The notes: generated by a model from the sequence alone, not told the origin. Shown: positions 14,750-40,101, counted from the stretch's first letter. The stretch: DNA of 43,568 nucleotides from an uncultured Gammaproteobacteria bacterium (GCA_964442865.1 CAYUAZ010000001.1:1-43568); one strand, 5' to 3'. Numbers and translations: made by a program.

Positions 14750-14751
14750 GG

Positions 14752-16140: not shown

Positions 16141-16169
16141 TTAACGGATTCTACTGAGGGAAACAGATC

Positions 16170-16532: not shown

Positions 16533-16553
16533 GTACCGGCGTGTAATACCCGC

Positions 16554-16588
16554 ACGGCATGCGCTGAAAAGCCCATGCCGTTTTTTTT
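16554..16588 (+). terminator. Rho-independent terminator after ihfB
   Basis: acggcatg-cgctgaaaagcc-catgccgt followed by T8. Confidence 0.7.
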
Positions 16589-16696
16589 GAGCGAGCGGCT
16601 CCTCCGGGAATGATTGATTCAACCGCGCTATTAGGCTTATCCTGTGCAGTATCGCTCCCGCGACATTAGTCGTCCCTGTACGTCAGAGGTGGCATC

Positions 16697-19559: not shown

Positions 19560-19587
19560 CTTGACAGTATGTCATGCGGGGGCTTAG

Positions 19588-19623
19588 TATTCAATTGTTC
19601 GGAAACATACGAACAATTGAATA
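19588..19623. promoter_or_regulatory. Candidate operator: perfect 14-bp inverted repeat in the arsR-like/RND divergent promoter region
   Basis: TATTCAATTGTTCG-N8-CGAACAATTGAATA. It overlaps a candidate -10 (TAGTAT, 19585-19590) that lies 18 nt downstream of TTGACA (19561-19566), reading toward the RND genes. Confidence 0.5.
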
Positions 19624-19683
19624 TCCCTTACCTGTCACAATAGATTCACATACAGAGTACAACATCTCTATACCGCTGACAAA

Positions 19684-24115: not shown

Positions 24116-24143
24116 TTGACATTCCATAGTGCTATGGTAGATT
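24116..24143 (+). promoter_or_regulatory. Candidate sigma70 promoter for the sigma54-activator gene
   Basis: TTGACA (24116-24121), 16-nt spacer, TAGATT (24138-24143). The spacer contains the palindrome ccatagtgctatgg. Confidence 0.35.
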
Positions 24144-24177
24144 GTTAACCAAGTATGCGACTTGGAAGGTAACTATT

Positions 24178-25632
24178 ATGCAAGCCGATGGCACATGGAC
24201 GGTTCTGGTGGTCAATGATGAGACCCCGGCCCGGATTTCATTGGTTTATCGTCTTGAGGAAGACTACCGTGTATTGACCGCCACGTCGGTCCGCGACGCG
24301 CTGCATATCCTGAACAGTGAAGAAGTGGATCTGGTGCTGTGCGACCAGCGATTGCCGGACAGGAATGCTGTCGAGTTCTTTCGGGAAACGCGAATTTCCC
24401 ATCCCGAATCCATACGCATCCTGATTACCGAGACCACGGATCACCTGGATTTGATCCGCTTGATCAACGATGCGGCCGTCTATCAAGTAGTGCCCAAGCC
24501 CTGGCAACCCGACCATTTATTGCTGTTGGTCAAACGAGCCCTCGAAAGCCGCGAACTGGCGCGGCGGCATCGTTACCTGAGCCGGGAACTCAAGTTCGCC
24601 GACACCGTATTGCGGCGGCAGAACGACCATATGGTCAAGCTGTTGCAGGACAGTTACGAGTTCGATAAGTTAATTTACGCGAGCGATAGCATGGGCGCTG
24701 TCTGCAACCTGGCCCGCAAGGCGGCGGCCACGGATCTGCCGGTGCTGATTGAGGGTGAAACCGGGACAGGCAAGGAGCTGATGGCGCGGGCGGTGCATTT
24801 TTTCAGCAGCCGGAGGGATTTCCCGTTCCTCGCCCAGAACTGCGGTGCGCTGCCTGACGAATTGCTGCATTCGGAACTCTTTGGACACAAACGCGGCGCT
24901 TATACCGGCGCCATCAGCGACCGGCTGGGACTGTTCCCCGCCGCCGATGGCGGCACGGTGTTTCTCGACGAGATTTCCGATGTGTCGCCGTCGTTTCAAG
25001 TGAACTTGCTGAGATTTTTGCAGGAGGGCGAGGTCAAACCGCTGGGAACCCATCTGACCCGCCACTGCAACGTCCGGATTATCGCCGCATCGAACCGGCC
25101 GTTGCAGGAGCTGGTGGAGCAGGGTAGGTTTCGCCGTGATCTTTACTATCGGTTACGCGGCTTCGAATTGAACATTCCGCCGCTACGTGAGCGGGTAGAA
25201 GACATCCCGATACTGGCCGAACACGCCGCGAAGAAATACGCGGAAGGGATACACCGCAAGATCGCGGGGATATCGTCCGAGGTGTTGCAGCGCCTCAAGG
25301 CCCACCCTTTCCCCGGCAACGTGCGCGAACTGGAAAACGAAGTGCGGCGCATGGTGGCGCTGGCGGAGGACGGCGAATTTCTCTCGGTGAAGTTGATGTC
25401 GCCGGAGTTCGCGCGCCTGACTGCAAAGGAGGGCAAGGAGGGACAGGACGCTTTTCTTGCCCAGCAGGGGACGCTCAAGGACAAAGTCGAGTCCCTGGAG
25501 GAGTATCTGGTAGCGCAGTCATTGCTCAGGCACAAATGGAATCGCAGCCGCGCGGCGCTGGAATTAGGTATATCGCGCGTGGGTCTGACCAACAAGATCA
25601 GGCGCTATAAACTGGATATGAAGAGTGCCTAG
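24178..25632 (+). CDS. Sigma54-dependent response regulator (receiver + AAA+ enhancer-binding domain + Fis-type HTH), NtrC family
   Basis: Receiver (VLVVNDE..., DLVLCDQRLPD, PKPW). AAA+ Walker A GETGTGKE, sigma54-contact loop GAYTGA, ELFGH. C-terminal HTH SRAALELGISRVGLTNKIRRY. ATG 24178 is preferred over the track's TTG at 24142. Confidence 0.9.
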   Translation: MQADGTWTVLVVNDETPARISLVYRLEEDYRVLTATSVRDALHILNSEEVDLVLCDQRLPDRNAVEFFRETRISHPESIRILITETTDHLDLIRLINDAAVYQVVPKPWQPDHLLLLVKRALESRELARRHRYLSRELKFADTVLRRQNDHMVKLLQDSYEFDKLIYASDSMGAVCNLARKAAATDLPVLIEGETGTGKELMARAVHFFSSRRDFPFLAQNCGALPDELLHSELFGHKRGAYTGAISDRLGLFPAADGGTVFLDEISDVSPSFQVNLLRFLQEGEVKPLGTHLTRHCNVRIIAASNRPLQELVEQGRFRRDLYYRLRGFELNIPPLRERVEDIPILAEHAAKKYAEGIHRKIAGISSEVLQRLKAHPFPGNVRELENEVRRMVALAEDGEFLSVKLMSPEFARLTAKEGKEGQDAFLAQQGTLKDKVESLEEYLVAQSLLRHKWNRSRAALELGISRVGLTNKIRRYKLDMKSA

Positions 25633-25644: not shown

Positions 25645-25893
25645 ATGTCGGAAGACCCCAGCGACCCGTCCGGCCCGGATGTAAAAGCAGGAACCCACCC
25701 GTTCCCGTATTCACGTATTAGCCCACCCGCTACGCCGGGAGGGTTCAAGGATCTCGGCATCACGCCCCTCGCGCGTCAACTCGGACTTACCCTAGAACAG
25801 ACCAATGGCCATTGGTGTAGCCGTTGCCAGGGCATTTGGTTTGGCTACACCCTGGAGGCCGAGTGTCCTGTGTGTGGCAATCGCAACCGCTGA
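25645..25893 (+). CDS. Hypothetical small protein with C-terminal zinc-ribbon (CxxC...CxxC)
   Basis: 82 aa with a strong SD (GGAGG, 5-nt spacer). Disordered Pro-rich N-terminus, then CSRCQGIWFGYTLEAECPVCGNRNR. It starts 12 nt after the regulator stop. Confidence 0.6.
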   Translation: MSEDPSDPSGPDVKAGTHPFPYSRISPPATPGGFKDLGITPLARQLGLTLEQTNGHWCSRCQGIWFGYTLEAECPVCGNRNR

Positions 25894-26044: not shown

Positions 26045-26060
26045 TGGCACGCTGATTGCC
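26045..26060 (+). promoter_or_regulatory. Sigma54 (-24/-12) promoter for hupS
   Basis: TGGCACGCTGATTGCC against the consensus TGGCACG-N4-TTGCW, with GG and GC at the canonical spacing. It lies 82 nt upstream of the hupS ATG, and a sigma54 activator gene is adjacent. Confidence 0.65.
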
Positions 26061-26141
26061 TTGGGGTAAAGGACGCCCGACGATTGCACCGCCAAGGGCT
26101 ACCGGTTTGTTCCCGCACACACATTAAGAAGGAGCTCCAAG

Positions 26142-27104
26142 ATGGCAAATCTGCTCTGGCTGCAAGGAGGGGCGTGTTCCGGAAATACGATGTCATTTCT
26201 GAACGCCGAAGAACCCAGCGCCTGTGACCTGGTCACCGACTTCGGCATCAATATCCTGTGGCATCCGTCACTCGGTGTCGAGTTGGGCGACAACCTCCAG
26301 AAGCTTCTCCGCGATTGCGTGTCGGGTGCAATCCCGCTCGACATTTTCGTTTTCGAAGGCACTGTGGTCACTGCACCCAACGGCACCGGTCAATGGAACC
26401 GCTTCGCGGGCAAGGCGATGCAGGAGTGGGTGAAGGCGCTTTCCGATGTGGCTACCTTTGTTGTGGCCGTCGGCGACTGCGCGACCTGGGGCGGCATCCC
26501 GGCCACGGCGCCCAATCCCAGCGAGTCGCGCGGCATGCAGTTTTTGAAGCGTGACAAGGGTGGCTTTCTCGGCAGCAACTTCAAATCCAAGTCCGGCCTG
26601 CCCGTGGTCAATATCCCTGGCTGCCCGGCGCACCCGGACTGGATCACGCAAATCGTGGTGGCGATTGCGACCGGTCGCGGCGGCGACATCGCGATTGACG
26701 ACTTCCAGCGGCCGAAGACGTTTTTCAGCAGCTTCACGCAAACCGGTTGTACCCGCAACATGCACTTTGCCTACAAGGTCTCAGCCACCGAATTCGGCCA
26801 GCGCAAGGGTTGTTTGTTCTATGATCTGGGCTGTCGCGGGCCGATGACGCATTCGCCCTGCAACCGTATTCTCTGGAACCGGCAGTCGTCCAAGACCCGT
26901 TCCGGCATGCCCTGCCTGGGTTGTACCGAACCCGAGTTCCCGTTTTTCGATCTTGCCCCCGGCACCCTGTTCAAGACCCAGACGGTGATGGGCGTACCCA
27001 AGGATCTGCCCACCGGGATCAACAAGACAGGCTATATCGCGCTCACCGGGGCGGCGAAAAATGCAGCGCCGGCCTGGGCTGAACAAGACATGTTCGTGGT
27101 TTAG
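26142..27104 (+). CDS. hupS: [NiFe] hydrogenase small subunit, no Tat signal (group 2a-like, cytoplasmic)
   Basis: 320 aa, begins directly MANLLWLQGGACSGNTMSFLNAEEPSACDLV with no twin-arginine leader and no C-terminal anchor. FeS-cluster Cys patterns run throughout (GDCATWGG, PGCPAHPDW, GCTRN, LGCRGP, MPCLGCTEPEFP). Confidence 0.92.
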   Translation: MANLLWLQGGACSGNTMSFLNAEEPSACDLVTDFGINILWHPSLGVELGDNLQKLLRDCVSGAIPLDIFVFEGTVVTAPNGTGQWNRFAGKAMQEWVKALSDVATFVVAVGDCATWGGIPATAPNPSESRGMQFLKRDKGGFLGSNFKSKSGLPVVNIPGCPAHPDWITQIVVAIATGRGGDIAIDDFQRPKTFFSSFTQTGCTRNMHFAYKVSATEFGQRKGCLFYDLGCRGPMTHSPCNRILWNRQSSKTRSGMPCLGCTEPEFPFFDLAPGTLFKTQTVMGVPKDLPTGINKTGYIALTGAAKNAAPAWAEQDMFVV

Positions 27105-27134
27105 CGTGGTCAGGAAATCTGAGGAGATAACATC

Positions 27135-28730
27135 ATGGCTGTGCAAACATTAGACATCTCACCGGTCGGGCGTGTCGAGGGCGATCTCGATGTGCGCGTT
27201 GATATCGAGAACGGCGTAGTCACCAACGCCTGGACCTCGGCGGAGCTGTTCCGCGGTTTTGAAATTATCCTGCGCGACAAGGATCCGCAGGCCGGGCTGG
27301 TGGTCACACCGCGCGCCTGCGGCATCTGCGGCGCTTCGCATCTCACGTGCGCCGCATGGGCGCTAGACACCGCATGGCAAACCGAGGTGCCGCGCAACGC
27401 GATTCTGGCGCGCAATCTGGGCCAGATCGTGGAGAGCCTGCAAAGCCAGCCGCGCTATTTCTACGGCCTGTACGCGATTGACCTGACCAACAAGAAATAC
27501 CGCAAGAGCAAGTATTACGAAGAGGCGTGCAAGCGTTTCGCGCCGTTCACCGGTACGTCTTACGAGCTGGGCGTCACCATCTCCGGCAAGCCGGTCGAGA
27601 TCTACGCCCTGCTCGGGGGCCAGTGGCCGCATTCGAGCTATATGGTGCCGGGCGGCGTCATGTGCGCGCCGACCTTGTCGGATGTCACCCGCTCCTGGTC
27701 GCTCCTCGAGTACTTCAAGAAAAACTGGCTCGAGTCGTGCTGGCTGGGTTGTTCGCTGGAGCGCTACGAGCAGATCAAGACCTACAACGACTTCATGGCC
27801 TGGCTGGACGAGAGTCCCGCCCATGCCAATTCCGACCTCGGCTTTTACTGGCGCATGGGGCTGGATATCGGCCTCGACAAGTACGGCGGCGGTGTCGGCC
27901 GCTACATCTCCTGGGGCTATCTGCCGCACGAGGACAAGTACCAGAAGCCCACCATTGAGGGTCGCAATGCCGCGCTGATCATGAAGAGCGGCGTCTACGA
28001 CGGCAAGACCGATAAGCATACGCTGATGTCGCAGGACAAGGCGCGCGAGAACGTGTCGCACTCGTGGTACGACGAGGGAACCGCAGACATGCACCCGTAC
28101 GACCGCGTCACTCGCGCCACGCAAAAAAATGACACCGATTTCAAGGGCGCCTATTCGTGGGCGACTGCCGTCAACCATAGTGAAAATGGCCGCCTCGAAG
28201 CCGGACCGTTTGCGCGTCAACTTATAGCGGGCGGCAAACACGGTGAGCCGTGGCAGCACTACGACGGGCTGATCCTGGACATGTACAAGAAGATGGGTGG
28301 CCCGAGCCTGCACCTGCGCCAGATCGCGCGCATGCACGAGACCATCAAGCTCTATCGCCAGGCCGAACACTGTCTACGTGAGTTCCGTCTCAACGATCCG
28401 TGGTATATCAAGCCCAAGGAGCGCGATGGGCGCGGCTGGGGCGCGACCGAGGCGATCCGCGGGGCGCTGTGCCATTGGATCGAGGTGAAGGACGGCAAGA
28501 TCAAGAATTACCAGATCGTTGCGCCGACCACCTGGAACGTGGGTCCGCGTGACGGCAAGGGCATCCGCGGACCGATCGAGGAAGCCTTGATCGGCGCGCC
28601 CATCGCCGACCCGACCGACCCGGTCGAAGTGGGTCATGTGGCGCGCTCTTTCGACTCCTGCCTGGTATGCACGGTGCATGCCCACGACGCCAAGACCGGC
28701 AAGGAGTTGGCGCGGTTCCGTACCGGGTGA
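27135..28730 (+). CDS. hupL: [NiFe] hydrogenase large subunit with cleavable C-terminal extension
   Basis: 531 aa. N-terminal Ni-binding motif RACGICGASH and C-terminal DSCLVCTVH, followed by the 16-aa tail AHDAKTGKELARFRTG. A tail plus a dedicated protease gene argues for a catalytic enzyme rather than a sensor (HupUV-type). Confidence 0.95.
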   Translation: MAVQTLDISPVGRVEGDLDVRVDIENGVVTNAWTSAELFRGFEIILRDKDPQAGLVVTPRACGICGASHLTCAAWALDTAWQTEVPRNAILARNLGQIVESLQSQPRYFYGLYAIDLTNKKYRKSKYYEEACKRFAPFTGTSYELGVTISGKPVEIYALLGGQWPHSSYMVPGGVMCAPTLSDVTRSWSLLEYFKKNWLESCWLGCSLERYEQIKTYNDFMAWLDESPAHANSDLGFYWRMGLDIGLDKYGGGVGRYISWGYLPHEDKYQKPTIEGRNAALIMKSGVYDGKTDKHTLMSQDKARENVSHSWYDEGTADMHPYDRVTRATQKNDTDFKGAYSWATAVNHSENGRLEAGPFARQLIAGGKHGEPWQHYDGLILDMYKKMGGPSLHLRQIARMHETIKLYRQAEHCLREFRLNDPWYIKPKERDGRGWGATEAIRGALCHWIEVKDGKIKNYQIVAPTTWNVGPRDGKGIRGPIEEALIGAPIADPTDPVEVGHVARSFDSCLVCTVHAHDAKTGKELARFRTG

Positions 28731-28772
28731 GAGTGCTACTGCTGAAATAAGTTATCGAACGCCGTACAATCT

Positions 28773-28803
28773 AAAAAGGGGGCATGCTGTGTGCCCCTTT
28801 TTT
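28773..28803 (+). terminator. Terminator/attenuator-like hairpin after hupL
   Basis: aaaaagggggca-tgctgtg-tgcccctttttt: GC core stem flanked by A5/T6 (bidirectional shape). Operon genes continue right after it, so termination may be partial. Confidence 0.5.
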
Positions 28804-28818
28804 ATGGAGACCCTGGAG

Positions 28819-29133
28819 ATGCATAGCGACCAAGAAAACGCCTTGCGGGCACGCATCGCCAAAATGATGGCAGACGGGCTGCAAACACAGACCGAACCCT
28901 TCCCTGAGACCGACCGCGAGTTCGGTAACCTGCTCACGGCGCTGCGTGAGTTGAATCCGGATGACCTGACAGGGAAATTGGTGTTGTCGGGCTTTATTGA
29001 CAAGCCCTATGGCGAAGATCAGATGCGCTGCCAGGAATGCATGTATTACCTGGTGCATCGCAAGTGGTGCGATCTGCCGGAACTTGCGGTGCCGGTGGAG
29101 CCTAACTGGTGGTGTCGTTTGTGGCGAATCTGA
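28819..29133 (+). CDS. HiPIP-like putative [4Fe-4S] protein, no signal peptide
   Basis: 104 aa from ATG 28819 (GGAGA 9 nt upstream; ATG 28804 is an alternative). The C-terminus is RCQECMYYLVHRKWCDLPELAVPVEPNWWCRLWRI. It has four Cys and matches the HiPIP pattern C-x(6,9)-[LIVM]-x3-G-[YW]-C-x2-[FYW], except W replaces G. Confidence 0.6.
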   Translation: MHSDQENALRARIAKMMADGLQTQTEPFPETDREFGNLLTALRELNPDDLTGKLVLSGFIDKPYGEDQMRCQECMYYLVHRKWCDLPELAVPVEPNWWCRLWRI

Positions 29134-29140
29134 ATAATCA

Positions 29141-29614
29141 GTGCTTACGGTTATCGGCTGCGGAAACTCTAACCGGTGCGATGACGGCGTAGGCGTTTTT
29201 GTCGCACAGTCGTTGCAGTCCTATCTGCGCCAGCGGCCGCGCGACAATGTGCGGGTGTTCGATGCGGGCACCGGCGGCATGGACGTTATGTTCCATGCGC
29301 GTGGCGCGCACAAACTCATCATCGTGGATGCAGCGCAGACCGGTTCAGAACCCGGCGCCATCTATGAGGTGCCGGGAGAGGAACTGGCGGCGGAGCGCGA
29401 GCCCAGCTACAGCCTGCATGACTTCCGCTGGGATCACGCGCTCGCCGCAGGTCGCAAAATTTTCCGCGACAGCTTTCCGACCGATGTAAGCGTGTATCTG
29501 ATTGAATCCGCCAGCCTCGATTTCGGCCTCGAACTTAGCGACCTCGTGCGTGCTGCGGCGGACAAGGTGATTGCTGACATCCGGCGCATCATTGATGAAT
29601 ACCCATCCATCTGA
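29141..29614 (+). CDS. hupD: [NiFe] hydrogenase maturation endopeptidase (HupD/HoxW/HybD family)
   Basis: 157 aa with a GTG start. LTVIGCGNSNRCDDGVGVFV, KLIIVDAA and SLHDF motifs are typical of HycI/HybD proteases. Confidence 0.85.
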   Translation: MLTVIGCGNSNRCDDGVGVFVAQSLQSYLRQRPRDNVRVFDAGTGGMDVMFHARGAHKLIIVDAAQTGSEPGAIYEVPGEELAAEREPSYSLHDFRWDHALAAGRKIFRDSFPTDVSVYLIESASLDFGLELSDLVRAAADKVIADIRRIIDEYPSI

Positions 29615-29966
29615 CTCTCTGGCGCAGGGCGACGCTGACACAGCGCAGCACCTGGTGTCCGTGCTGCGCGGCAATCTCTATCTCGCACGCGAGACGTGCG
29701 ATCAATATTTTCCGGACATCCAGTCAGTGGCGTTAATCGCCCGCGAAGAGATGGTCATGATCGTGCCGCTCACCCTGGAGTCCGGCGGAGGATTGCTGTT
29801 AAAAATCCGCAATGCGCGCGGCGACCGGGTCATCCACGCGCAGGAATTTTTCCGGGCGCAAGGTTTTGTCGAGGATTTTCAGGAGCGCACCGTCCCCGTT
29901 CATTGGAGCAGCGAATTGGCCGCTCTGGCCGTAGCGGGAATTCCAAAAACAGGGCATAAAGTGTAA
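29595..29966 (+). CDS. Hypothetical protein (123 aa) in the hydrogenase operon
   Basis: The ORF overlaps the end of hupD by 20 nt. No motif recognised. Start is uncertain (TTG 29571 or ATG 29595). Confidence 0.45.
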   Translation: MNTHPSDSLAQGDADTAQHLVSVLRGNLYLARETCDQYFPDIQSVALIAREEMVMIVPLTLESGGGLLLKIRNARGDRVIHAQEFFRAQGFVEDFQERTVPVHWSSELAALAVAGIPKTGHKV

Positions 29967-30081
29967 AGATACTTTGCATATTGAAAAAATACTGGACAGT
30001 TAGATTCCTTGGTCCTAGACTCGAAAACAAGAAAAAATCACATCCCAAAATCCATAAAAAATCCGCATCCTGGAGGTGAAA

Positions 30082-31170
30082 GTGGCACAAACCCTGTCCA
30101 TGTCCCAGTTCGACGCCGCGCTGCAGGCGGTCGAGTCCGATGCGGCGACGCCCGAGGAAAAGGCCGAGATGCTCATGGAAATCGCCATGGGCATGCAGAC
30201 CCGCCCCAAGACCCTCGATCAACTGCATCAAGCCGTAGCCCTCTACGAACGCGCACTGGCGACATGTCCAGCCGAAGCCCCGCTACTTCAGGCGCGTGTG
30301 CGTGCGCGCATGGGCACCGCGCTGCAAGCCCTCCCCGACGGTGGCGTCGAGGCCTTGTACAAGGCACAGGCCTGCTATGAAGAGGCTTTGCCGGTATTGA
30401 AGGAAAAGGGCCGCCCGGAAGAAACCGCCGAAACTGAAATGAACTTGGGGCTCACGCTGCAATCGCTTGCCGGTTCCGGTATGGCGCGCATCCACGACGC
30501 CGTGCAGTGTTACCACCGTTCGTTACGGGTGTTCACGCGCGAGGCCTACCCGCAGGAATACGCCATCCTGCACAATAATCTCGCCATCGCCTATCTGGCG
30601 ATCCCGCTTTCCGACGAGCGCGGCAAGATGCGTGAAGCCCTCGCGGTGCAATCGTTCGAAGAAGTCCTTAAGGTCATCAATTTGGTGGATCACCCGACCG
30701 AGTACGCGATGATCCAGAACAATCTGGGCAATGCTCTACAGTATGTGTCCAGCGGTCATGCCCTGGAGAACAATCTGCGTGCGCTGGAGGCCTACGACGA
30801 GGCGCTCAAGGTGCGCAACGTCCGCGACACGCCGCTGGAATACGCCAACACCATTTCCAACAAGGCCAATGTGTTGAGGAACCTGCCGGATGATCCGGAG
30901 AATTCGATTTCCGATGTACAGGGAAGAGCGACAGCGAAGGGTACTACCAGTGTCGCGGGAGGCAGGACGCCGGGAGCGACCGGCAAGCGCAGTAACCTGA
31001 CCCGCGCGCGTGAGCTTTACGCGGAGGCAAAGTCCATCTTCACGCGCCTCCAGCAGCCTGGCAGTGCAGGCGTAGTGGACGATGCCTTGGCGGAAATCAT
31101 ACAGGAGCTCGCGTCCAGCCAGTTGAGTGACCGCCACAGCAATGGCGATGGTCGCGCGGACGTTGCTTAA
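30082..31170 (+). CDS. TPR-repeat protein
   Basis: ~362 aa with repeated A/L/Y/N helical pairs (ALYERALATC, NLGLTLQSL, HNNLAIAYLA, QNNLGNALQY, ISNKANVLRNL). GTG 30082 lies 5 nt after GGAGG. Preceded by a 109-bp AT-rich spacer. Confidence 0.72.
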   Translation: MAQTLSMSQFDAALQAVESDAATPEEKAEMLMEIAMGMQTRPKTLDQLHQAVALYERALATCPAEAPLLQARVRARMGTALQALPDGGVEALYKAQACYEEALPVLKEKGRPEETAETEMNLGLTLQSLAGSGMARIHDAVQCYHRSLRVFTREAYPQEYAILHNNLAIAYLAIPLSDERGKMREALAVQSFEEVLKVINLVDHPTEYAMIQNNLGNALQYVSSGHALENNLRALEAYDEALKVRNVRDTPLEYANTISNKANVLRNLPDDPENSISDVQGRATAKGTTSVAGGRTPGATGKRSNLTRARELYAEAKSIFTRLQQPGSAGVVDDALAEIIQELASSQLSDRHSNGDGRADVA

Positions 31171-31193
31171 GCAGCTTTTTTGGAGAGATTATT

Positions 31194-31424
31194 ATGGAAA
31201 CATTCATGCACCAACTGCTGTCTGGACAACTGAACATCCTGACCGTACTAATCTGGACGGTTGTTATCTTTCTGCTGTCAATGGCGGGTGGGGCCATCGC
31301 GGCTGTCAAGCTCGCCGGAAAAGATTTAGGTAACGAACTGGCAGCCTCGATGGGGGCGATGTTCGGCCCGACTGGAGCTGTGCCGGGGATACTCCTCGGT
31401 TTAATCATTTTGGCATTCATTTAA
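31194..31424 (+). CDS. Small membrane protein (76 aa, 2 predicted TM helices)
   Basis: LNILTVLIWTVVIFLLSMAGGAIAAV ... GAVPGILLGLIILAFI. Preceded by GGAGAG. Confidence 0.6.
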   Translation: METFMHQLLSGQLNILTVLIWTVVIFLLSMAGGAIAAVKLAGKDLGNELAASMGAMFGPTGAVPGILLGLIILAFI

Positions 31425-31429
31425 AGGAG

Positions 31430-31660
31430 TTGGTTATGTGGGCCCTGTTTTCCAATTCACTCATGTTGTTCCTTAAGGGCAAGCTGTTCCGCGAGCCGCT
31501 TGAGGTGTTGAAAAAATGGCTGATCGGTGTCTGCGTGGCGCTGGTTGCAGTCGTCGTGCTGGCCAAGATCAGTGTGCCGTTGTGGCTCGCGGTGGTGATC
31601 ACGGCGCTGGGTAGTGGCGCGCTCCAGCCCTATTTATTCAAGAACCTCAAATATTCCTGA
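31430..31660 (+). CDS. Small membrane protein (76 aa, 2-3 predicted TM helices)
   Basis: WALFSNSLMLFL ... WLIGVCVALVAVVVLAKISVPLWLAVVITALGSGAL. AGGAG lies upstream and the gene starts 5 nt after the previous stop. Confidence 0.6.
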   Translation: MVMWALFSNSLMLFLKGKLFREPLEVLKKWLIGVCVALVAVVVLAKISVPLWLAVVITALGSGALQPYLFKNLKYS

Positions 31661-31670
31661 GTGTGCTTTC

Positions 31671-32588
31671 ATGAACAGCGCCGCACCCGATCAAATTACT
31701 CAGCCGTCTGGTGAAGATTCCGACGCCGATCTGGAACGGCGAGTGCGGGCGATCACCAGCTTGGAGGCCATCGTCGCAGGCTGGGACGAGACGCACATGC
31801 TTACTGTGCAGGTACTCAAGTCCGCCATCGAGGAATTAAACAAGGAGGCGCTGAAGCGCTTGATCCGTGTCCTCAAGGATGATCCGGCAAGCTATGCGCG
31901 AATGAGGGAAGCCTTGAACGACCCGTTGATCTACGGTGTGTTACGTTTCCATGGCTTGGTGAAGGAGTCGTTGCAAACCCGCATTGAAAAAGCACTGGAT
32001 GAAGTGCGGCCGTATATGGCTACGCACGGCGGCAACGTGGAACTCGTTGCAGTCAAGCCGCCGGATACCGTTGAGATCCGCCTGATCGGGTCCTGCCACG
32101 GCTGTCCCGCATCGAGCCAGACGTTGACTGAAGGTGTGGAAAAGGCAATTCGCGCGCACTGTCCTGAAATTGTTCATATCAATCAAGTCAGCAAAGGCCC
32201 ATCGGAATCCCAGCACGGCGTCGTGAAAAACGGCGAGTCCGTGGTCCATTTCATCAGCCCCTTTGCGCTGCATGCGAAATCGGGCTGGGTAGACGCAGCC
32301 GGCCTGAATGAAATTCCGGAAGGCGGCATCACCGAACGCAAGATCAAGGGGCGCTCGGTGCTGCTCAGCAAGCAAGGCAGTCGCGTCAGTTGTTTCGACA
32401 ACAGTTGCGCGCATCTCGGCATGCCCCTGGAAATGGGTGAGGTGCGTGAGGGTGTCATCACCTGCTCCTATCACGGCTTTCAGTATCTGCTGGAAACTGG
32501 TGAATGCCTCACCGCGCCCGAGGTGCAACTCAAGGTACATGCGGTGCGGGTAGTGAGTGATCGGGTGCAGGTCCGGCTGGAGGAATGA
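31671..32588 (+). CDS. NifU-like + Rieske [2Fe-2S] two-domain iron-sulfur protein (HucE/HhyE-like)
   Basis: Nfu/NifU C-terminal-type domain (VRPYMATHGGNVELVAVKPPDTVEIRLIGSCHGCPASSQTLTEGVEKAI), then a Rieske motif pair CAHLG ... CSYHGF. ATG 31671 is preferred because the track start 31614 overlaps the previous gene. Confidence 0.8.
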   Translation: MNSAAPDQITQPSGEDSDADLERRVRAITSLEAIVAGWDETHMLTVQVLKSAIEELNKEALKRLIRVLKDDPASYARMREALNDPLIYGVLRFHGLVKESLQTRIEKALDEVRPYMATHGGNVELVAVKPPDTVEIRLIGSCHGCPASSQTLTEGVEKAIRAHCPEIVHINQVSKGPSESQHGVVKNGESVVHFISPFALHAKSGWVDAAGLNEIPEGGITERKIKGRSVLLSKQGSRVSCFDNSCAHLGMPLEMGEVREGVITCSYHGFQYLLETGECLTAPEVQLKVHAVRVVSDRVQVRLEE

Positions 32589-32733
32589 GCGCTTATGAAT
32601 AAATCTACTGCGCAGTCCGTCCGCGTCGTTGCGCGGTGCTCGGAATCCTCATTGACTAGCGTGTCAACTCCGGTTCCTGCGCTCCGGGCGCCTAGCGGCC
32701 GGACTTGCTCGCTACGATTTCTTCATAAGCGCT
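32588..32733. mobile_element. 146-bp TIR-bounded MITE-like element in the NifU-Rieske/NHL gene spacer
   Basis: Left end AGCGCTTATGAATAAATC (32588-32605). The reverse complement of the right end (32716-32733) is AGCGCTTATGAAGAAATC, 17/18 identical. The interior holds several short hairpins. Without the element the two genes would be ~5 nt apart. Confidence 0.6.
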
Positions 32734-32739
32734 AACGTC

Positions 32740-33954
32740 ATGACCACCGCTCTGCGTGTCAGTCTCACGTCGTCCTTAAAGCAAGCACCCTTGCCCGGCC
32801 CGGCGAGTGTTGCGCTGTTGGCGCGGGGCGGGCCGCAGGTGAGCATCGGCGGCGCGCCGGGCAGTGATGGCCTCGCGGTGCCGGTGAAACCGGATGCAAT
32901 TTCTCTGTTCGGGCCGCGCGGCGCTTGTCTCGCGGGCGACGAGGGCCCGCTGTGGGTGAGCGATACCGGCCATCATCGGCTGCTCGGTTGGGCGCGCGCG
33001 CCGCTCACGAGCGATACTCCTGCGGACTGGATCATCGGGCAGCCGGACTTCCGGCATGAAGGACGTAACGCCAAGGGCGAGCCTGGAGCTGCGACACTCA
33101 ATGTGCCTACCGGCATCACGCCGTGCGGCGCAGGCCTCGCCGTGGCGGATGCCTGGAACCATCGCGTGCTGATCTGGCGCCGGTTGCCGTGTGACCACAA
33201 CACGCCCGCCGACCTCGTGCTCGGTCAACAGGATTTTAATTCCATGCAGGCCAATCGCGGCGCCGAAAATCCAACTGCCGATAGTCTGTTCTGGCCTTAT
33301 GGTATCCATTGGGACGGCGCCCGCTTGTGGGTGGCCGACAGCGGCAACCGGCGCGTGCTGATGTGGAACGGTTTGCCCGCGCACAACGGGCAAGCCGCCG
33401 ACTTGGTGCTCGGTCAGCAGGGTTTCACCTGTCGCGACGAAAACGCCGGCGGAGAGCCGAGTGCCTCCAGCATGCGTTGGCCGCATGGCCTGACGTTATG
33501 GCAGGACCGGTTGTGTGTATCTGACGCCGGCAACAACCGGATTATGGTCTGGGACACCGTGCCCACTCAGAACAACACCCCTTGCGATCACACCCTCGGA
33601 CAGAGCGATGTTAGTTCAGTGGACAACAACCAGTCGCTCTACTGGCCGAACGAGGCCAGTTTGAATATGCCCTACGGCTGTGCCGCAGCCGGAAACTGGT
33701 TGATGGCCGCAGACACCGCCAATTCGCGTCTCATCGCCTGGCACGCCGACGATTGCCACACCGGCGCGCCCGCCCGTGCACTGAGCGCGCAACCCGATTT
33801 CCGCGCCAAGGGCGACAACCGCTGGCAACTGCCCGCACACGACAGTTTGTGCTGGCCTTACGGAGTCACGCACTGCGCCGGCCTGGTGGCCGTCGCCGAT
33901 TCCGGCAACAATCGCGTGTTGTTGTGGCGGATTGCGGAAGACTTGGCGCCATGA
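32740..33954 (+). CDS. NHL-repeat beta-propeller protein
   Basis: 404 aa, roughly six repeats of the pattern (I/V)LGQxDF...N...P.G(I/L)...L.V.D..N.R(V/I)L.W (e.g. IIGQPDF, LVLGQQDF, LVLGQQGF, HTLGQSDV, SAQPDF; DTGHHRLLGW, DAWNHRVLIW, DSGNRRVLMW, DAGNNRIMVW, DTANSRLIAW, DSGNNRVLLW). Confidence 0.8.
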   Translation: MTTALRVSLTSSLKQAPLPGPASVALLARGGPQVSIGGAPGSDGLAVPVKPDAISLFGPRGACLAGDEGPLWVSDTGHHRLLGWARAPLTSDTPADWIIGQPDFRHEGRNAKGEPGAATLNVPTGITPCGAGLAVADAWNHRVLIWRRLPCDHNTPADLVLGQQDFNSMQANRGAENPTADSLFWPYGIHWDGARLWVADSGNRRVLMWNGLPAHNGQAADLVLGQQGFTCRDENAGGEPSASSMRWPHGLTLWQDRLCVSDAGNNRIMVWDTVPTQNNTPCDHTLGQSDVSSVDNNQSLYWPNEASLNMPYGCAAAGNWLMAADTANSRLIAWHADDCHTGAPARALSAQPDFRAKGDNRWQLPAHDSLCWPYGVTHCAGLVAVADSGNNRVLLWRIAEDLAP

Positions 33955-36380
33955 ATACCATGACCATGCCCGAAGTCGTACCGGAACACGCCGAATTTAT
34001 CCGCGTGCGCGGTCTGGTGCAGGGCGTGGGTTTCCGTCCCACCGTGTGGCGGCTCGCTCAACGCTACGGCCTGCGCGGGTGGGTGGCGAACGACGTGGAG
34101 GGCGTCAGCATCCACGTCTGCGGCATGGCGGCATGCGTCGAAGCATTTGTGTATGCCTTATCGCGTGAAGCACCGCCGCTCGCGCGTATTGATCGCATAG
34201 AGCGTGAGCCGGCCGCGCTGCTGCCGCAGGACGCGGATTTTTGCATCAAGGCGAGCCAGGCCAACGGCCTACACTTGCAAATCAACACCGGCGTCGTGCC
34301 CGACGCGGCAAGCTGTCCCGAATGCATCAAGGAGGTGTTCGATCCCTTCGCGCGACGTTACCGCTACCCCTTCACCAACTGCACCCACTGCGGGCCCAGG
34401 CTATCCATCATCGAGGCCATTCCCTACGACCGCACCGCGACCACGCTGCGCGCGTTCGCGCTGTGCCCCGCGTGTGCCGCCGAGTATCACGACCCGAACG
34501 ATCGCCGCTTCCACGCGCAACCGATAGCCTGCCACGCCTGCGGCCCGCGCGCCTGGCTGGAGCGCGCCGACGGCGCCGCCATCGCGCTGGACACGCTCAC
34601 CACGCTGGACGCGGTGGATGCGGTCTGCTCGCTGTTGCAGCGCGGACACATCGTCGCCATCAAGGGCCTGGGCGGATTCCAGCTCGCCTGTGACGCCAGC
34701 AACGAAACCACCGTGGCGCGTCTGCGCCAACTCAAACAGCGTGAACGCAAACCCTTCGCGCTGATGGCGCGCGACCTGGAGGTGATACGCCGTTACTGTA
34801 CCGTGACTGAAATCGAAGAGACGTTGCTGCAAAGCCCCGCCGCGCCAATCGTGATTATGAACGCGGAGGGCGCCGGCCACGTTGCCGCCAGCGTCGCGCC
34901 GGGCGTGAAAACCCTGGGCTTTATGTTGCCCAATACGCCGCTGCACCATCTCATGCTGCGCCGCATGAACCGGCCCATCGTGTTGACCAGCGGCAATCTG
35001 TCCGACGAGCCTCAGTGCATAGACAACGCCGAGGCCCGCACGCGGCTGGGGGGTGTCGCCGAATATTTTCTGCTGCACGACCGCGACATCGCGTGCCGCG
35101 TGGACGACTCAGTGGTGGGTGTGGCCGACGCTGCGCCGCGCCTGCTGCGCCGCGCACGCGGCTATGCGCCGGCGACCTTGCCGCTGCCACCGGGATTTTC
35201 GGCGGCGCCTGCGGTGCTCGCTATGGGTGGCGAATTAAAAAACACCTTTTGTCTGCTACGCGCAGGCCAAGTCATACTCTCGCATCACATGGGCGATCTG
35301 GAAAACGCCGCGACCCACGCCGACTACACCCGCTCCATCGAGCAATATCTGAAACTGTTCGAACACACACCGCGCGTCATCGCCGTGGATAGGCATCCCG
35401 AATATCTATCAGGCAAGCTCGGCCGGGAGCGTGCTGCACAGCAGTCGCTCACACTCACGGAAGTGCAGCATCATCACGCCCATATCGCCGCCTGCCTGGC
35501 GGAGAACGGTATCGCGCTCGATGCCGGGCCGGTGCTCGGCGTTGCCCTCGACGGCCTCGGCTATGGGGCCGACGGCACGCTGTGGGGCGGGGAATTTCTG
35601 CTGGCCGACTACCGCGCATGCAAGCGCCTGGGGACGTTCAAGCCGGTCGCTCTGCCGGGCGGAGAGCAGGCCATGCGCCAACCCTGGCGCAACACCTACG
35701 CGCACCTGATGGCGGAAATGGGCTGGGCGCGCTTCAGCATGAATTACAGTGAACTCGATCTCTACCGGTTTCTCGAAACCCAACCGCGCAAACTGCTCGA
35801 TGGCATGATCGCAACCGGCGTCAACAGCCCGCTGGCGAGTTCCTGCGGACGGTTGTTCGATGCTGCCGCCGCAGCGGCGGGGATATGCCGTGAGCAGGCG
35901 CTGTACGAGGGTCAGGCCGCGATTGAATTCGAGGCGCGGGTGGATCAGCGCACGTTGGCGGAGGAAAGCGATGAACTCGCCTATCCGTTCGCCATCCCGC
36001 GTCTCAAGACCAACAACCTCCCTTATATAGAACCGCTCGCCATGTGGCAGGCGCTGCTCGGTGATCTGATACTCGCCACACCCGTGCCGGTAATCGCGGC
36101 GCGCTTTCACAAAGGGCTCGCCATCGTCATCGCGCGCATGGTCGAAAAACTGAGCCGCTATGAAAGCGGCGCAGAACCGATCATGACCGTCGCACTCTCC
36201 GGCGGCGTATTTCAGAATCGCGTGCTGTTTGAGCAGGTGGTGATGCGGTTGGAGCGGCAGGGTTTTCGCGTACTGACACACCGCCAGCTACCCGCCAATG
36301 ATGGCGGGCTGGCCCTGGGCCAGGCAGTCATCGCGGCGGCGCAAGCGCTCGCGGTCATGGGTGTAACTAACGGAGGCTGA
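33951..36380 (+). CDS. hypF: Carbamoyltransferase HypF
   Basis: 809 aa from ATG 33951 (ATGA overlap with the NHL gene stop). Acylphosphatase domain (IRVRGLVQGVGFRPTVWRLA), two zinc fingers (CPECIKEV...CTHCGPR; CPACAAEY...CHACGPR), and YrdC-like and Kae1-like domains. Confidence 0.95.
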   Translation: MNTMTMPEVVPEHAEFIRVRGLVQGVGFRPTVWRLAQRYGLRGWVANDVEGVSIHVCGMAACVEAFVYALSREAPPLARIDRIEREPAALLPQDADFCIKASQANGLHLQINTGVVPDAASCPECIKEVFDPFARRYRYPFTNCTHCGPRLSIIEAIPYDRTATTLRAFALCPACAAEYHDPNDRRFHAQPIACHACGPRAWLERADGAAIALDTLTTLDAVDAVCSLLQRGHIVAIKGLGGFQLACDASNETTVARLRQLKQRERKPFALMARDLEVIRRYCTVTEIEETLLQSPAAPIVIMNAEGAGHVAASVAPGVKTLGFMLPNTPLHHLMLRRMNRPIVLTSGNLSDEPQCIDNAEARTRLGGVAEYFLLHDRDIACRVDDSVVGVADAAPRLLRRARGYAPATLPLPPGFSAAPAVLAMGGELKNTFCLLRAGQVILSHHMGDLENAATHADYTRSIEQYLKLFEHTPRVIAVDRHPEYLSGKLGRERAAQQSLTLTEVQHHHAHIAACLAENGIALDAGPVLGVALDGLGYGADGTLWGGEFLLADYRACKRLGTFKPVALPGGEQAMRQPWRNTYAHLMAEMGWARFSMNYSELDLYRFLETQPRKLLDGMIATGVNSPLASSCGRLFDAAAAAAGICREQALYEGQAAIEFEARVDQRTLAEESDELAYPFAIPRLKTNNLPYIEPLAMWQALLGDLILATPVPVIAARFHKGLAIVIARMVEKLSRYESGAEPIMTVALSGGVFQNRVLFEQVVMRLERQGFRVLTHRQLPANDGGLALGQAVIAAAQALAVMGVTNGG

Positions 36381-36381
36381 T

Positions 36382-36663
36382 ATGTGCCTGGGCATTCCCG
36401 GACAAATTGTAGAAGTGAGCGACCACGCCAAAAAACTCGCCATCGTCAACGTCAGCGGCGTGAAGCGCGAGATCAACATCGCCTGCGTGGTCAATGAAAA
36501 CCACCCGGTAGCCTCCTGCGTCGGCGACTGGGTGCTGGTGCACGTCGGCTTCGCCATGAGCCGCATTGACGAAGAGGAGGCGATGAAGACGCTGCAACTG
36601 TTGACGGAGCTGGGCGAGATACAGGACGAGTTGCGGGCGATGCGCGAATCCGCGCGAGTCTGA
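36382..36663 (+). CDS. hypC: Hydrogenase maturation chaperone HypC
   Basis: MCLGIPGQIVEV N-terminus; 93 aa. Confidence 0.93.
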   Translation: MCLGIPGQIVEVSDHAKKLAIVNVSGVKREINIACVVNENHPVASCVGDWVLVHVGFAMSRIDEEEAMKTLQLLTELGEIQDELRAMRESARV

Positions 36664-36666
36664 ACT

Positions 36667-37359
36667 ATGACCGATGCCAACGCCCACCTCCAGGCCCTCT
36701 ACCCGTTTCTGCACGGCGGCAAGAAAGATGCGGCGCGTGAGAATATCGCGCTGCTGGAATCGGTGCGCCAGAAGTCATCCCACAGCGTCGAGACCAAGCA
36801 AGATTTTTTTGCCACGCACGCACAGCAGGTGGTGGACACGGCGCGCGCCATCGCCGGCATTTATCTCGGCGACGGGCGCTTGTTCACCATGGGCAACGGC
36901 GGCTCCAGTTGCGACGCCGCGCATATCGCCGTGGAGTTTCTGCACCCGGTCACGGCGGGCCGCCCGGCGCTCACCGCCATCAATCTGGTGGCGGACACGG
37001 CGATGCTGACGGCGGTGGGCAACGATGTCGGTTTCAAGCATATCTTCGTGCGCCAGATCATCGCCCAGGGCCGGCGCGGCGACGGCCTGATCGGCATTTC
37101 GACCAGCGGCAATTCGGAAAATCTGCTGGCGGCGTTTACGCAAGCGAAAGAGATGGGTATGACGACGATAGGCCTGACCGGCATGGACGGCGGCCGTATG
37201 GCGCAAAGCCCGCAGCTCGATCATTGCCTGACTGTACGCACCGACAGCATCCATCGCATCCAGGAAACGCATGTGGCGATTTATCACATCCTGTGGGACT
37301 TGGTGCACACCCTGCTCGCGGATCAGCGCGGCAATCTTGAGCCAGAGGCGCAGACATGA
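36667..37359 (+). CDS. SIS-domain protein (GmhA/DiaA-like sugar-phosphate isomerase fold) embedded in the hyp operon
   Basis: 230 aa with LFTMGNGGSSCDAAHIAVEF, GDGLIGISTSGNSENLL and TIGLTGMDGG, all SIS-domain signatures. Confidence 0.85.
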   Translation: MTDANAHLQALYPFLHGGKKDAARENIALLESVRQKSSHSVETKQDFFATHAQQVVDTARAIAGIYLGDGRLFTMGNGGSSCDAAHIAVEFLHPVTAGRPALTAINLVADTAMLTAVGNDVGFKHIFVRQIIAQGRRGDGLIGISTSGNSENLLAAFTQAKEMGMTTIGLTGMDGGRMAQSPQLDHCLTVRTDSIHRIQETHVAIYHILWDLVHTLLADQRGNLEPEAQT

Positions 37360-37513
37360 GGGCACCTCTAAAAATGCGTCTTTTGTCTTTATGCGGCGTT
37401 GAAAGTCTGCTCGGAATGCGGGGCCGGGAAGCGGTAGACTGGCGTGTACACTGCGCTTCCTCGCAGAATTTCGCCTTGCCTAAAGCCAAAATCCACTATT
37501 TTTAGAGGTGCCC
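37360..37513. mobile_element. 154-bp MITE-like element with perfect 16-bp terminal inverted repeats, inserted exactly at the SIS-stop/hypD-start junction
   Basis: GGGCACCTCTAAAAAT (37360-37375) ... ATTTTTAGAGGTGCCC (37498-37513). ATGA lies on both flanks (37356-37359 and 37514-37517), consistent with duplication of an original overlapping ATGA stop/start. Confidence 0.7.
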
Positions 37514-38686
37514 ATGAAATACGCAGACGAATTCCGCGATCCCGAAAAGGCCAAAGTGCTGCTGCGCGAAATTGAGACGCTGGTTCAGCGCATTGAGGTG
37601 TGCAAGCAACGCCCGCTGCAACTGATGGAAGTGTGCGGCGGCCACACCCATTCCATTTTCAAATACGGCATCGAGCCGATGCTGCCCAAGGCCATCGAGT
37701 TCGTGCACGGCCCCGGTTGCCCGGTGTGCGTATTGCCCATGGGGCGGGTGGATGATTGCGTGGCGCTGGCCCAGCATCCGCAGGTCATCTTTACTACCTT
37801 TGGCGACGCCATGCGCGTGCCGGGGTCGAAGAAGAATCTGCTGCAGGCCAAGGCCGACGGCGCGGACGTGCGCATGGTGTACTCGCCCATGGACGCCTTG
37901 AAGCTGGCGCGCGCGCATCCCGATAAAGAAGTGATCTTCTTCGCGCTGGGTTTCGAGACCACCATGCCCAGCACCGCGCTCACCGTACTCCAGGCGGAGC
38001 GCGAAGGCATCAAGAATTTTTCGTTGTTCTGCAATCACATCACTATCATCCCCACCATCAAGGCGATTCTGGATTCGCCCGAACTGACGCTGGACGGCTT
38101 CCTGGGGCCTGGGCATGTGAGCATGGTGATCGGTACCGAACCCTATGCGTTTATCGCCAAACACTATCGCAAACCGATAGTGGTCGCCGGTTTCGAGCCG
38201 CTGGATATTCTGCAATCAGTGTGGATGCTGCTCAAACAAATCGCCGAGGGCCGTTGTGAGGTCGAGAACCAGTACCAGCGCATCGTGCCTGAGACCGGCA
38301 ACGATCAGGCGCTCACCGCCGTCAGCCGGGTGTTTGAGTTGCGCGAATTTTTTGAGTGGCGCGGCCTGGGCTCGATTGACCACTCCGGCATTCGTCTGCG
38401 TGAGGCTTACGGGCGCTTCGACGCCGAACGCAGATTCTCCGTCCCTAATCTCAAGATTGCCGATCCCAAATCCTGTCAGTGCGGCGAGGTGTTGAAGGGC
38501 GTGATCAAACCCTGGGAGTGCAAGGTGTTTGGCCGTGCCTGCACACCGGAAACACCGCTCGGCGCGCTCATGGTGTCCTCCGAAGGCGCGTGCGCGGCCT
38601 ATTACAATTACGGCGGCGTGGAAATGGCACGCTTGATCCGCGAGCGCGCGGATGAAGTTCTGCTGGCAGCGGGAGAGATTGCATGA
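37514..38686 (+). CDS. hypD: Hydrogenase maturation protein HypD
   Basis: MKYADEFRDPEKAK N-terminus, with CGGHTH, GPGCPVCV and FETT motifs. Start at ATG 37514 (the track's GTG 37508 lies inside the element TIR). Confidence 0.95.
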   Translation: MKYADEFRDPEKAKVLLREIETLVQRIEVCKQRPLQLMEVCGGHTHSIFKYGIEPMLPKAIEFVHGPGCPVCVLPMGRVDDCVALAQHPQVIFTTFGDAMRVPGSKKNLLQAKADGADVRMVYSPMDALKLARAHPDKEVIFFALGFETTMPSTALTVLQAEREGIKNFSLFCNHITIIPTIKAILDSPELTLDGFLGPGHVSMVIGTEPYAFIAKHYRKPIVVAGFEPLDILQSVWMLLKQIAEGRCEVENQYQRIVPETGNDQALTAVSRVFELREFFEWRGLGSIDHSGIRLREAYGRFDAERRFSVPNLKIADPKSCQCGEVLKGVIKPWECKVFGRACTPETPLGALMVSSEGACAAYYNYGGVEMARLIRERADEVLLAAGEIA

Positions 38687-39768: not shown

Positions 39769-39771
39769 CCC

Positions 39772-40101
39772 GTGCACGAACTCGGCATTACGCGCAATGT
39801 GGTGGCCATCTGCGCCGAGCGCGCCAACGGTGCGCGGGTCATCCGCGTGACGCTGGAGATCGGCAAGCTGGCGGCGGTGCTGCCCGACTCGGTGCGTTTT
39901 TGTTTCGATATCTGCGCCCAGGGCACACCGGTTGAAGGCGCTGCACTGGACATCATCGAGACCGCAGGTCGCGCGCGTTGCCGCGATTGCGACGGCGAAG
40001 TGGCGCTGAGCGAACTGTTTGGCCGTTGCGGCTGCGGCAGTGTGAATCTGCAACTGATCGCAGGCGAAGAAGTGAAAATCAAAGAAATGGAGGTGGCGTA
40101 A
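39772..40101 (+). CDS. hypA: Nickel insertion protein HypA
   Basis: 109 aa with GTG start (V/M)[10 protein letters not shown] and zinc site CRDC...CGCG. Confidence 0.9.

Follow-up and report, generated by a model that had tools for sequence, protein, structure and literature searches.

The window examined here, a 43,568-nucleotide (nt) stretch from an uncultured Gammaproteobacteria bacterium (GCA_964442865.1, CAYUAZ010000001.1:1-43568), encodes a [NiFe] hydrogenase, HupSL, a row of mostly small accessory genes and a complete hyp maturation set. We read this locus, with a probability of roughly 0.7, as a complete sigma-54-controlled operon for an O2-insensitive uptake hydrogenase of the type known as Huc in Mycobacterium smegmatis. 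Quinone would be reduced on the small subunit HupS itself, and the accessory genes would form a mosaic of processing, assembly, docking and add-on functions. The evidence that carries this reading is the assignment of HupS and HupL to group 2a, the conservation of the quinone site of Huc in HupS, and the distribution of each accessory gene among related loci.

A group 2a hydrogenase related to Huc

Judged by PDB matches and pairwise identities, the enzyme is classed as a catalytic, cytoplasm-facing group 2a [NiFe] hydrogenase. The best PDB match of HupL is HucL of M. smegmatis Huc (E 5e-194), the next being a group 1 enzyme at 2.5e-64. HupS matches HucS (7UUR) over its full length with an E-value of 1.2e-157 (the next group 1 match is at ~1e-34), and a global alignment gives 68.7% identity over the full length. 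HupS begins with MANLLWLQGGACSGN, has no twin-arginine (Tat) leader and no C-terminal anchor, as had been noted in a preliminary description of this DNA, and in the alignment its residue 2 stands opposite the first residue of mature HucS. HupL ends in DSCLVCTVH followed by a 16-residue tail, AHDAKTGKELARFRTG. A gene for a HycI-family protease lies two genes 3' of hupL, with orfA between them, and the tail is predicted to be a cleavable extension that this dedicated endopeptidase would remove.

For comparison we assembled related loci in four sets: 80 loci from genomes, centred on close relatives of HupL (L001-L080), five annotated plasmid loci, 80 metagenome loci around a more distant, "mixed" HupL clade, and four more reached via homologues of the membrane protein TM2. 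Distributions of accessory genes were obtained with family hidden Markov models (HMMs) run over all open reading frames (ORFs) of the retrieved loci. HupL is 79-93% identical to its counterparts in genomes of Proteobacteria, Nitrospira, Acidobacteria and Cyanobacteria (79-83% for Nostoc and Calothrix, 85-88% for Nitrospira), 73-80% identical to alphaproteobacterial plasmid copies, and 56-58% identical to those of Mycobacterium, Thermus, Runella and Sulfobacillus (58% for Mycobacterium HucL). The best matches among the retrieved loci, at 92-93%, come from Pseudomonadota metagenome-assembled genomes, none of them identical to the window. Identity to genes annotated as HupU, the H2 sensor, is only 32-34%. 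This low value and the C-terminal tail effectively rule out a group 2b sensor (HupUV/HoxBC). The preliminary description had taken HupL for a catalytic enzyme rather than a HupUV sensor; the tail, the protease, the HucL best match and the distance to HupU all bear this out, and by identity HupL sides with group 2a rather than with a sensor clade.

A membrane-bound respiratory enzyme of group 1 was likewise ruled out, HupS having no Tat leader and Pfam scans finding no cytochrome b (HupC/HyaC). Between 24 and 42 kb of the window, no sizeable ORF was matched by Pfam to cytochrome b, diaphorase, flavoprotein or DUF1641, in agreement with the earlier statement that the locus has neither cytochrome b nor diaphorase.

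The cluster is also plasmid-borne. It makes up most of a 28.5-kb plasmid of Sphingopyxis alaskensis, and megaplasmids of Bradyrhizobium and Mesorhizobium carry it too (plasmid matches H1-H12, e.g. NC_008036.1). The HupL identity of 79-93% across phyla, together with the plasmid copies, indicates frequent horizontal transfer.

The quinone site of HucS is conserved in HupS

Purified M. smegmatis Huc consists of HucS, HucL and HucM only, and menaquinone is reduced directly on HucS (PMC10017518). The menaquinone sits beside the distal cluster, where it is held by Lys212, Tyr229 and Tyr301 of HucS (PMC10017518). All three residues are conserved in the HupS of the window (global alignment), Tyr227 and Tyr298 of HupS being the counterparts of HucS Tyr229 and Tyr301. 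Ten of the 11 HucS cysteines are kept as well, among them that of the single-Cys motif CSGN of the proximal cluster. The simplest reading is that HupS itself would be the reductase of the respiratory quinone, which would account for a locus with no cytochrome b or other partner gene. The 69% identity to HucS further suggests that HupS would share its three [3Fe-4S] clusters, its quinone binding and its oligomeric state. For the cyanobacterial group 2a enzyme, the immediate electron acceptor was called long enigmatic in 2019 (PMC6883350).

In HupL, the residue corresponding to His166 of HucL, a D-histidine in Huc, is conserved. The D-histidine is unexplained in Huc, and an isomerising accessory factor is expected somewhere.

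Layout of the locus

The features of the hydrogenase island, with the evidence for each, are:

24142..25632, + strand: NtrC-type sigma-54 activator with REC, AAA+ and HTH_8 domains (Pfam Sigma54_activat 2.7e-63, Response_reg, HTH_8)
25645..25893, + strand: o82, an 82-residue zinc-ribbon-like protein (HMM; no significant Pfam family)
26045..26059, + strand: sigma-54 (-24/-12) promoter, TGGCACGCTGATTGC (motif match)
26142..27104, + strand: hupS/hucS, group 2a small subunit (best PDB match HucS, 7UUR)
27135..28730, + strand: hupL/hucL, group 2a large subunit (best PDB match HucL, 7UTD/7UUS)
28819..29133, + strand: orfA, a 104-residue protein with four cysteines (family alignment; no Pfam domain)
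29141..29614, + strand: HupD/HycI-type endopeptidase (Pfam HycI 2.5e-20; TIGR00072 5.6e-39)
29595..29966, + strand: orfB, a 123-residue protein (AlphaFold2 model, linkage to the protease)
30076..31170, + strand: TPR protein of the alr0691 type (Pfam TPR_12)
31194..31424, + strand: TM1, a 76-residue two-helix membrane protein of the asr0689 family (NCBIfam NF052670, hydropathy)
31436..31660, + strand: TM2, a 74-residue membrane hairpin protein in the asr0690 position (alignment, hydropathy)
31671..32588, + strand: HucE-type protein with NifU and Rieske domains (Pfam NifU 1.7e-22, Rieske 1.7e-15)
32740..33954, + strand: NHL-repeat beta-propeller protein of the alr0693 type (Pfam NHL 4e-18)
33951..41006, + strand: hypF, hypC, SIS-domain gene, hypD, hypE, hypA and hypB, a complete [NiFe] maturation set (Pfam)
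41003..41707, + strand: putative nickel permease, weakly NicO-like (Pfam NicO 8e-06, slightly under the gathering score)

The gene list and shared orientation given in the preliminary description are accurate: all genes are present on the + strand and the gaps are mostly small. From hupS to hypF the intergenic distances are -20 to 30 nt in most pairs, with exceptions of 88, 109 and 151 nt. The start that had been given for the region, 26045, coincides with a perfect sigma-54 promoter consensus and not with the start of a gene. Within the maturation set, hypF starts at 33951, hypA spans 39772-40101 (57% identity to the PF01155 gene in locus L168) and hypB 40101-41006. The SIS-domain (sugar-isomerase-like) gene, at 36667-37359 between hypC and hypD, has counterparts in L168 and in the plasmid loci of Sphingopyxis and Mycobacterium. 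A 405-codon ORF on the opposite strand (39765-40982, -), antisense to hypA and hypB and without a Pfam match, is most likely a shadow ORF in GC-rich DNA. Upstream of the hydrogenase island, positions 1-20000 hold genes for flagellar export and chemotaxis (FlhA, FlhB, FlhF-like, FleN-like, FliA, CheA) as well as LapB, pyrF and a resistance-nodulation-division (RND) efflux pair, with no relation to the hydrogenase.

The accessory genes as a mosaic

Dozens of loci from Proteobacteria, Nitrospira and Acidobacteria carry the same colinear block as the window, so the gene arrangement is not due to chance, and the complete pattern was found in 27 loci with sufficient flanks. Accessory genes thus co-occur with hupSL far beyond this genome, the point that the gene-neighbourhood comparison proposed in the preliminary description was to check. 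Their ranges differ from gene to gene. The protease, orfB, TPR, HucE and NHL genes are common to both major clades, and in Mycobacterium intracellulare, Thermus thermophilus and Sulfobacillus acidophilus their products share 30-43% identity with those of the window. TM1 and TM2 are limited to a clade of cyanobacterial, proteobacterial, Nitrospira and acidobacterial loci, and orfA, o82 and the sigma-54 activator to the non-cyanobacterial part of that clade. By these distributions, the genes from hupL to hypF form a mosaic rather than one electron-relay module. The block had earlier been proposed as a possible proteobacterial counterpart of the actinobacterial system; the orthologues of HucE, TPR, NHL and orfB in the huc loci of Mycobacterium, Thermus and Sulfobacillus contradict this.

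Parts of the block have a history in the literature. Homologues of TPR, TM1, TM2, HucE and NHL were found by tblastn in Nostoc, Calothrix, Scytonema and other loci, and the same five genes were described in 2008 as asr0689-alr0693 of an "extended hyp operon" in Nostoc PCC 7120 (PMC2408588). HucE has been reported from Cyanobacteria, Nitrospira and Acidithiobacillus (PMC6883350), and hucE, an NHL-repeat gene and hypothetical genes were found associated with hucL across group 2a (PMC7784904), so that the link of HucE and NHL to group 2a dates from 2019 and 2020 (PMC6883350, PMC7784904). A 2026 paper treats these accessory genes only as hup-context genes. The earlier remark that their roles are essentially undescribed therefore does not hold for the block, which was described in Nostoc in 2008, and does hold for most individual roles beyond the genetics of HucE.

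Two further arrangements were seen among the related loci. Bacteroidota-type loci (the Runella plasmid L084 and L158-L163) have no HucM, TM1/TM2 or HucE near hupSL and keep TPR, orfB and a more distant NHL gene, a third arrangement. Hydrogenophaga-type loci (L027-L031, L040, L067) and L011, L017, L019, L041, L044 and L064 carry orfA, the protease and orfB, with no TPR, TM1, TM2, HucE or NHL gene within 10 kb. The absence of the TPR-to-NHL genes in the Hydrogenophaga-type loci was not used as a sign of dispensability, as the hyp operon there runs the other way and is truncated where the locus ends, and the block may lie just outside.

The protease and orfB

The product of orfB has an AlphaFold2 model with a predicted local distance difference test (pLDDT) score of 85, in which a beta-beta-alpha-beta-beta unit occurs twice and forms a pseudo-twofold beta-barrel. 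The fold has no confident PDB match, the best being a plant B3 domain (E 0.06, template modelling score 0.45). In 25 of 110 loci, from both group 2a clades, orfB and the protease share one reading frame with no stop between them (M. intracellulare is among these; L081:13590-14450 is an example); in the other loci the two are directly adjacent. Because of this fusion pattern, orfB probably acts as a partner of the endopeptidase on the HupL tail.

TM1/TM2 and HucM in group 2a loci

HucM is a DUF1641 protein (PMC13524794). Most metagenome loci of the mixed clade have a DUF1641 gene beside hucS, as do the loci of Mycobacterium, Thermus and Sulfobacillus; all loci of the window's own clade are without one. 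None was found in the window by phmmer, Pfam or a three-sequence HMM; this HMM, for which the proteins of Mycobacterium, Thermus and Sulfobacillus were used, had no match at E<=10 in the window or in L001-L080. The window carries two small membrane proteins instead. TM1 matches the NCBIfam model NF052670 (asr0689_fam) at 4.8e-23 and 81 bits, under the curated cut-off of 95, and has two hydrophobic segments by hydropathy. The single long segment of TM2 could accommodate a hairpin; its N-terminus is amphipathic and, like the C-terminal QPYLFKDLKY, conserved. Among 1.8 billion representatives searched, ~70 TM2 clusters at 50% identity were found, all of ~74 residues and none of them a fusion, and TM2 homologues, distant ones included, were found only in hupSL loci.

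We counted both types in the 73 loci whose flanks reach at least 4 kb upstream and 6.5 kb downstream:

TM1/TM2 only: 39 of 73 loci
HucM only: 18 of 73 loci
TM1/TM2 and HucM together: 0 of 73 loci
Neither TM1/TM2 nor HucM: 16 of 73 loci, several of which end at the edge of the retrieved stretch

Because they never co-occur with HucM, TM1 and TM2 are the best candidates in this locus for a membrane tether or quinone access. The membrane tether of the preliminary description survives in this respect for TM1 and TM2 and falls away for the rest of the block. More specifically, and more tentatively, TM1 and TM2 might be an integral module unrelated to DUF1641 that replaces HucM in the cyanobacterial, proteobacterial and Nitrospira group 2a systems, docking HupS2L2 and giving its quinone site access to the pool; we hold this as a possibility rather than as the expected outcome.

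An alternative, which we consider improbable, is that the whole block, TM1 and TM2 included, serves small-subunit maturation only, quinone being reached through HupS itself or an unlinked protein. The Nostoc block is co-transcribed with hyp genes and was proposed to mature HupS (PMC2408588, PMC3126725), in nearly all loci hypF follows directly upon the block, and the pattern of TM1/TM2 versus HucM could be purely phylogenetic. Integral membrane proteins, however, are not expected for the maturation of a cytoplasmic iron-sulfur (FeS) subunit, and HucM-type loci carry TPR, HucE and NHL without TM1 or TM2, which argues that the two are dispensable for the shared assembly chemistry.

HucE, the TPR and NHL proteins, and orfA

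The motifs of HucE are intact in the window protein (CHGC, the NifU CxxC motif, and the C-terminal Rieske motif CAH-x17-CSYH). The gene is syntenic in all clades, and the NifU-family genes that occupy this position in Mycobacterium, Thermus and Sulfobacillus are 34-47% identical to it. Orthologues of the TPR protein are 30-54% identical (Mycobacterium, Thermus, Sulfobacillus and Sphingopyxis loci) and are also present in cyanobacterial loci, and those of the NHL protein are 41-59% identical across clades. In M. smegmatis deficient in hucE, the amperometric activity and the activity in nitroblue tetrazolium (NBT) zymograms were both lost; the authors proposed a role in electron transfer (PMC6883350). 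We favour assembly over an electron relay for HucE, since its loss abolishes dye-linked activity and purified Huc does not contain it; by analogy with that system the window protein may act in the same way. The TPR, HucE and NHL proteins together would most likely be a universal assembly set specific to group 2a.

The product of orfA is extremely conserved. Its C-terminal motif, C-x2-C-x9-C-x14-C, is invariant, and the last 35 residues hardly vary between phyla. There are 1195 homologue clusters, all annotated "hypothetical" and without a Pfam domain. A tandem orfA paralogue stands between orfA and the protease in 50 of 67 related loci; the window has one copy. The second paralogue has the motif C.TCMYY..HR.FC.LPEL..PV...WSC.LWRI (among others in L004, L007, L013 and L082, in the last at L082:12143-12499). 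The preliminary description had called this protein similar to a high-potential iron-sulfur protein (HiPIP). That label goes back to cysteine spacing only and we rejected it. Seven family members searched against Pfam had no match to HiPIP (PF01355) at E<=10, a 42-sequence orfA profile found no HiPIP among all PDB sequences, and Foldseek on the AlphaFold2 model, which is poor (pLDDT 65), gave nothing. The invariant cysteines suggest that orfA probably binds metal, and a secondary reading is that it may represent a novel class of protein with a metal or redox cofactor, confined to its subclade. The gene is absent from cyanobacterial and HucM-type loci.

The electron route proposed in the preliminary description ran from HupSL through a soluble FeS relay (orfA and/or the Rieske domain of HucE) to the quinone pool via TM1/TM2. 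The intact Rieske and NifU motifs of HucE, the four invariant cysteines of orfA with their HiPIP-like spacing and the missing cytochrome b all suit such a route, as does the requirement of Huc activity for HucE, for which electron transfer was proposed (PMC6883350). Yet Huc purified without HucE reduces menaquinone at HucS (PMC10017518), the residues of that site are conserved in HupS, and NBT cannot bypass the loss of HucE. Moreover, orfA has no detectable HiPIP similarity in Pfam, PDB profile or fold searches, and it is missing from the cyanobacterial and HucM-type loci that have working enzymes. We therefore regard the soluble relay as unnecessary and poorly supported and rate it as unlikely, marginally more so than the maturation-only alternative.

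Upstream control

The promoter-like element TGGCACGCTGATTGC is the sole zero-mismatch match to TGGCAC-N5-TTGC in the window and lies 83 nt upstream of the hupS ATG. Of the 42 o82-type loci, 17 have the strict sigma-54 motif upstream of hupS, against 0 of 52 HucM-type loci. A sigma-54 activator gene is syntenic upstream of hupS in most non-cyanobacterial loci, and the NtrC-type activator of the window is likely to regulate the hup operon. The window contains neither a sensor kinase nor a HupUV sensor. The small gene between activator and promoter, o82, encodes the motif HWCSRCxGIWFGYTLExxCPxCGNR. Its HMM found 43 ORFs, every one upstream of hupS; the gene is restricted to the non-cyanobacterial loci of the TM1/TM2 clade and absent from cyanobacterial and HucM-type loci.

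A role of HupSL in sensing H2 for regulation (group 2b, HupUV type), or as a soluble enzyme that passes electrons to a cytoplasmic acceptor instead of the respiratory chain, would fit its cytoplasmic location, the missing Tat leader and the adjoining sigma-54 response regulator, but is scarcely credible given the identities of HupL (32-34% to HupU versus 58% to HucL and ~80% to cyanobacterial HupL), its C-terminal tail, the dedicated protease, the full hyp set and the conserved quinone site.

Proposed mechanism and its significance

In the mechanism that we propose, HupL would oxidise H2 and the electrons would run through three FeS clusters of the HucS type to a quinone bound on HupS beside the distal cluster, as in M. 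smegmatis Huc. The endopeptidase and orfB would jointly process the HupL tail. The likeliest task of TPR, HucE and NHL would be to make the unusual clusters of the small subunit, or to shield them, in the presence of air. TM1 and TM2, in place of a DUF1641 stalk, would be the likeliest to dock the enzyme on the membrane with access to quinone, and orfA and o82 would be add-ons of the proteobacterial, Nitrospira and acidobacterial subclade.

Several points weigh against this proposal. The evidence comes entirely from sequence and model comparison, with cluster types, quinone binding and oligomeric state taken from the 69% identity to HucS. Electron transfer by HucE, the reading that its original authors preferred (PMC6883350), may still apply, and orfA is so extremely conserved that it could be a redox protein. 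The mutual exclusion of TM1/TM2 and HucM tracks HupL phylogeny and may reflect a few ancestral events rather than functional replacement. Finally, there are the 16 loci that have neither (some ending at the retrieved edge), and the Bacteroidota-type loci are also without HucE.

Group 2a hydrogenases oxidise H2, atmospheric H2 included, in Cyanobacteria, Nitrospira, Acidobacteria, Proteobacteria and Actinobacteria. The structure of Huc settled the acceptor for mycobacteria, where the small subunit reduces quinone delivered by HucM. The locus described here shows the same quinone site conserved in a clade without HucM that carries TM1 and TM2 instead. Should TM1 and TM2 indeed replace HucM, this would explain the respiratory coupling of most Gram-negative and cyanobacterial group 2a enzymes and would be a second solution to bringing quinone to a peripheral enzyme. 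In itself the locus is complete and ordinary, an instance of a known system; it sharpens the question of how group 2a enzymes without HucM reach quinone, and of what TPR, HucE, NHL and orfA do.

Comparison with known systems

The closest solved relatives of HupL and HupS are those of M. smegmatis Huc (PDB 7UTD, 7UUR and 7UUS; Grinter et al., 2023), with which the window agrees in its cysteine pattern, in the residues of the quinone site and in His166. The two systems also have in common the protease, the orfB domain, TPR, HucE, NHL, hypF, hypC, the SIS-domain gene, hypD and hypE. Unlike Huc, the window has no HucM/DUF1641 gene, with TM1 and TM2 in its place, and adds orfA and the zinc-ribbon protein; it has sigma-54/NtrC-type control, whereas the mycobacterial plasmid locus has an AraC-type neighbour.

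The cyanobacterial system, HupSL of Nostoc PCC 7120 with asr0689-alr0693 (Agervald et al., 2008; Holmqvist et al., 2011), is closer in sequence, HupL being ~80% identical. It too has two small proteins with two transmembrane segments, a TPR, a NifU-like and an NHL protein between hupSL and hypF, and neither locus has HucM or cytochrome b. The cyanobacterial loci differ in having no orfA, orfB, o82 or sigma-54 regulator near hupSL, and in a divergently oriented block under NtcA-type control whose role is the recycling of nitrogenase H2.

The NifU- and Rieske-domain protein resembles HucE/HhyE (Islam et al., 2019) in its NifU domain with CxxC, its C-terminal Rieske motif and its genomic position. 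Its identity to the orthologue on the mycobacterial plasmid is only 34%, and the function of HucE has been examined only in M. smegmatis.

Two more distant analogies can be drawn. DUF1641 scaffolds for quinone transport (HucM, ForCE, and Ndh-Ncp of Bacillus subtilis) offer the precedent of a peripheral oxidoreductase that reaches membrane quinone without an integral cytochrome. TM1 and TM2 differ from them as integral hairpins with no sequence relation, and any functional correspondence would be one of analogy. In the O2-tolerant group 1d systems, the HoxR/HupI rubredoxin and HupGHIJ are likewise small Cys-rich, thioredoxin-like or TPR-like helpers encoded between structural and hyp genes, where they are needed for aerobic maturation of the small subunit. 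Unlike the accessory proteins described here, with which they share no sequence homology, they serve group 1d enzymes that are Tat-exported.

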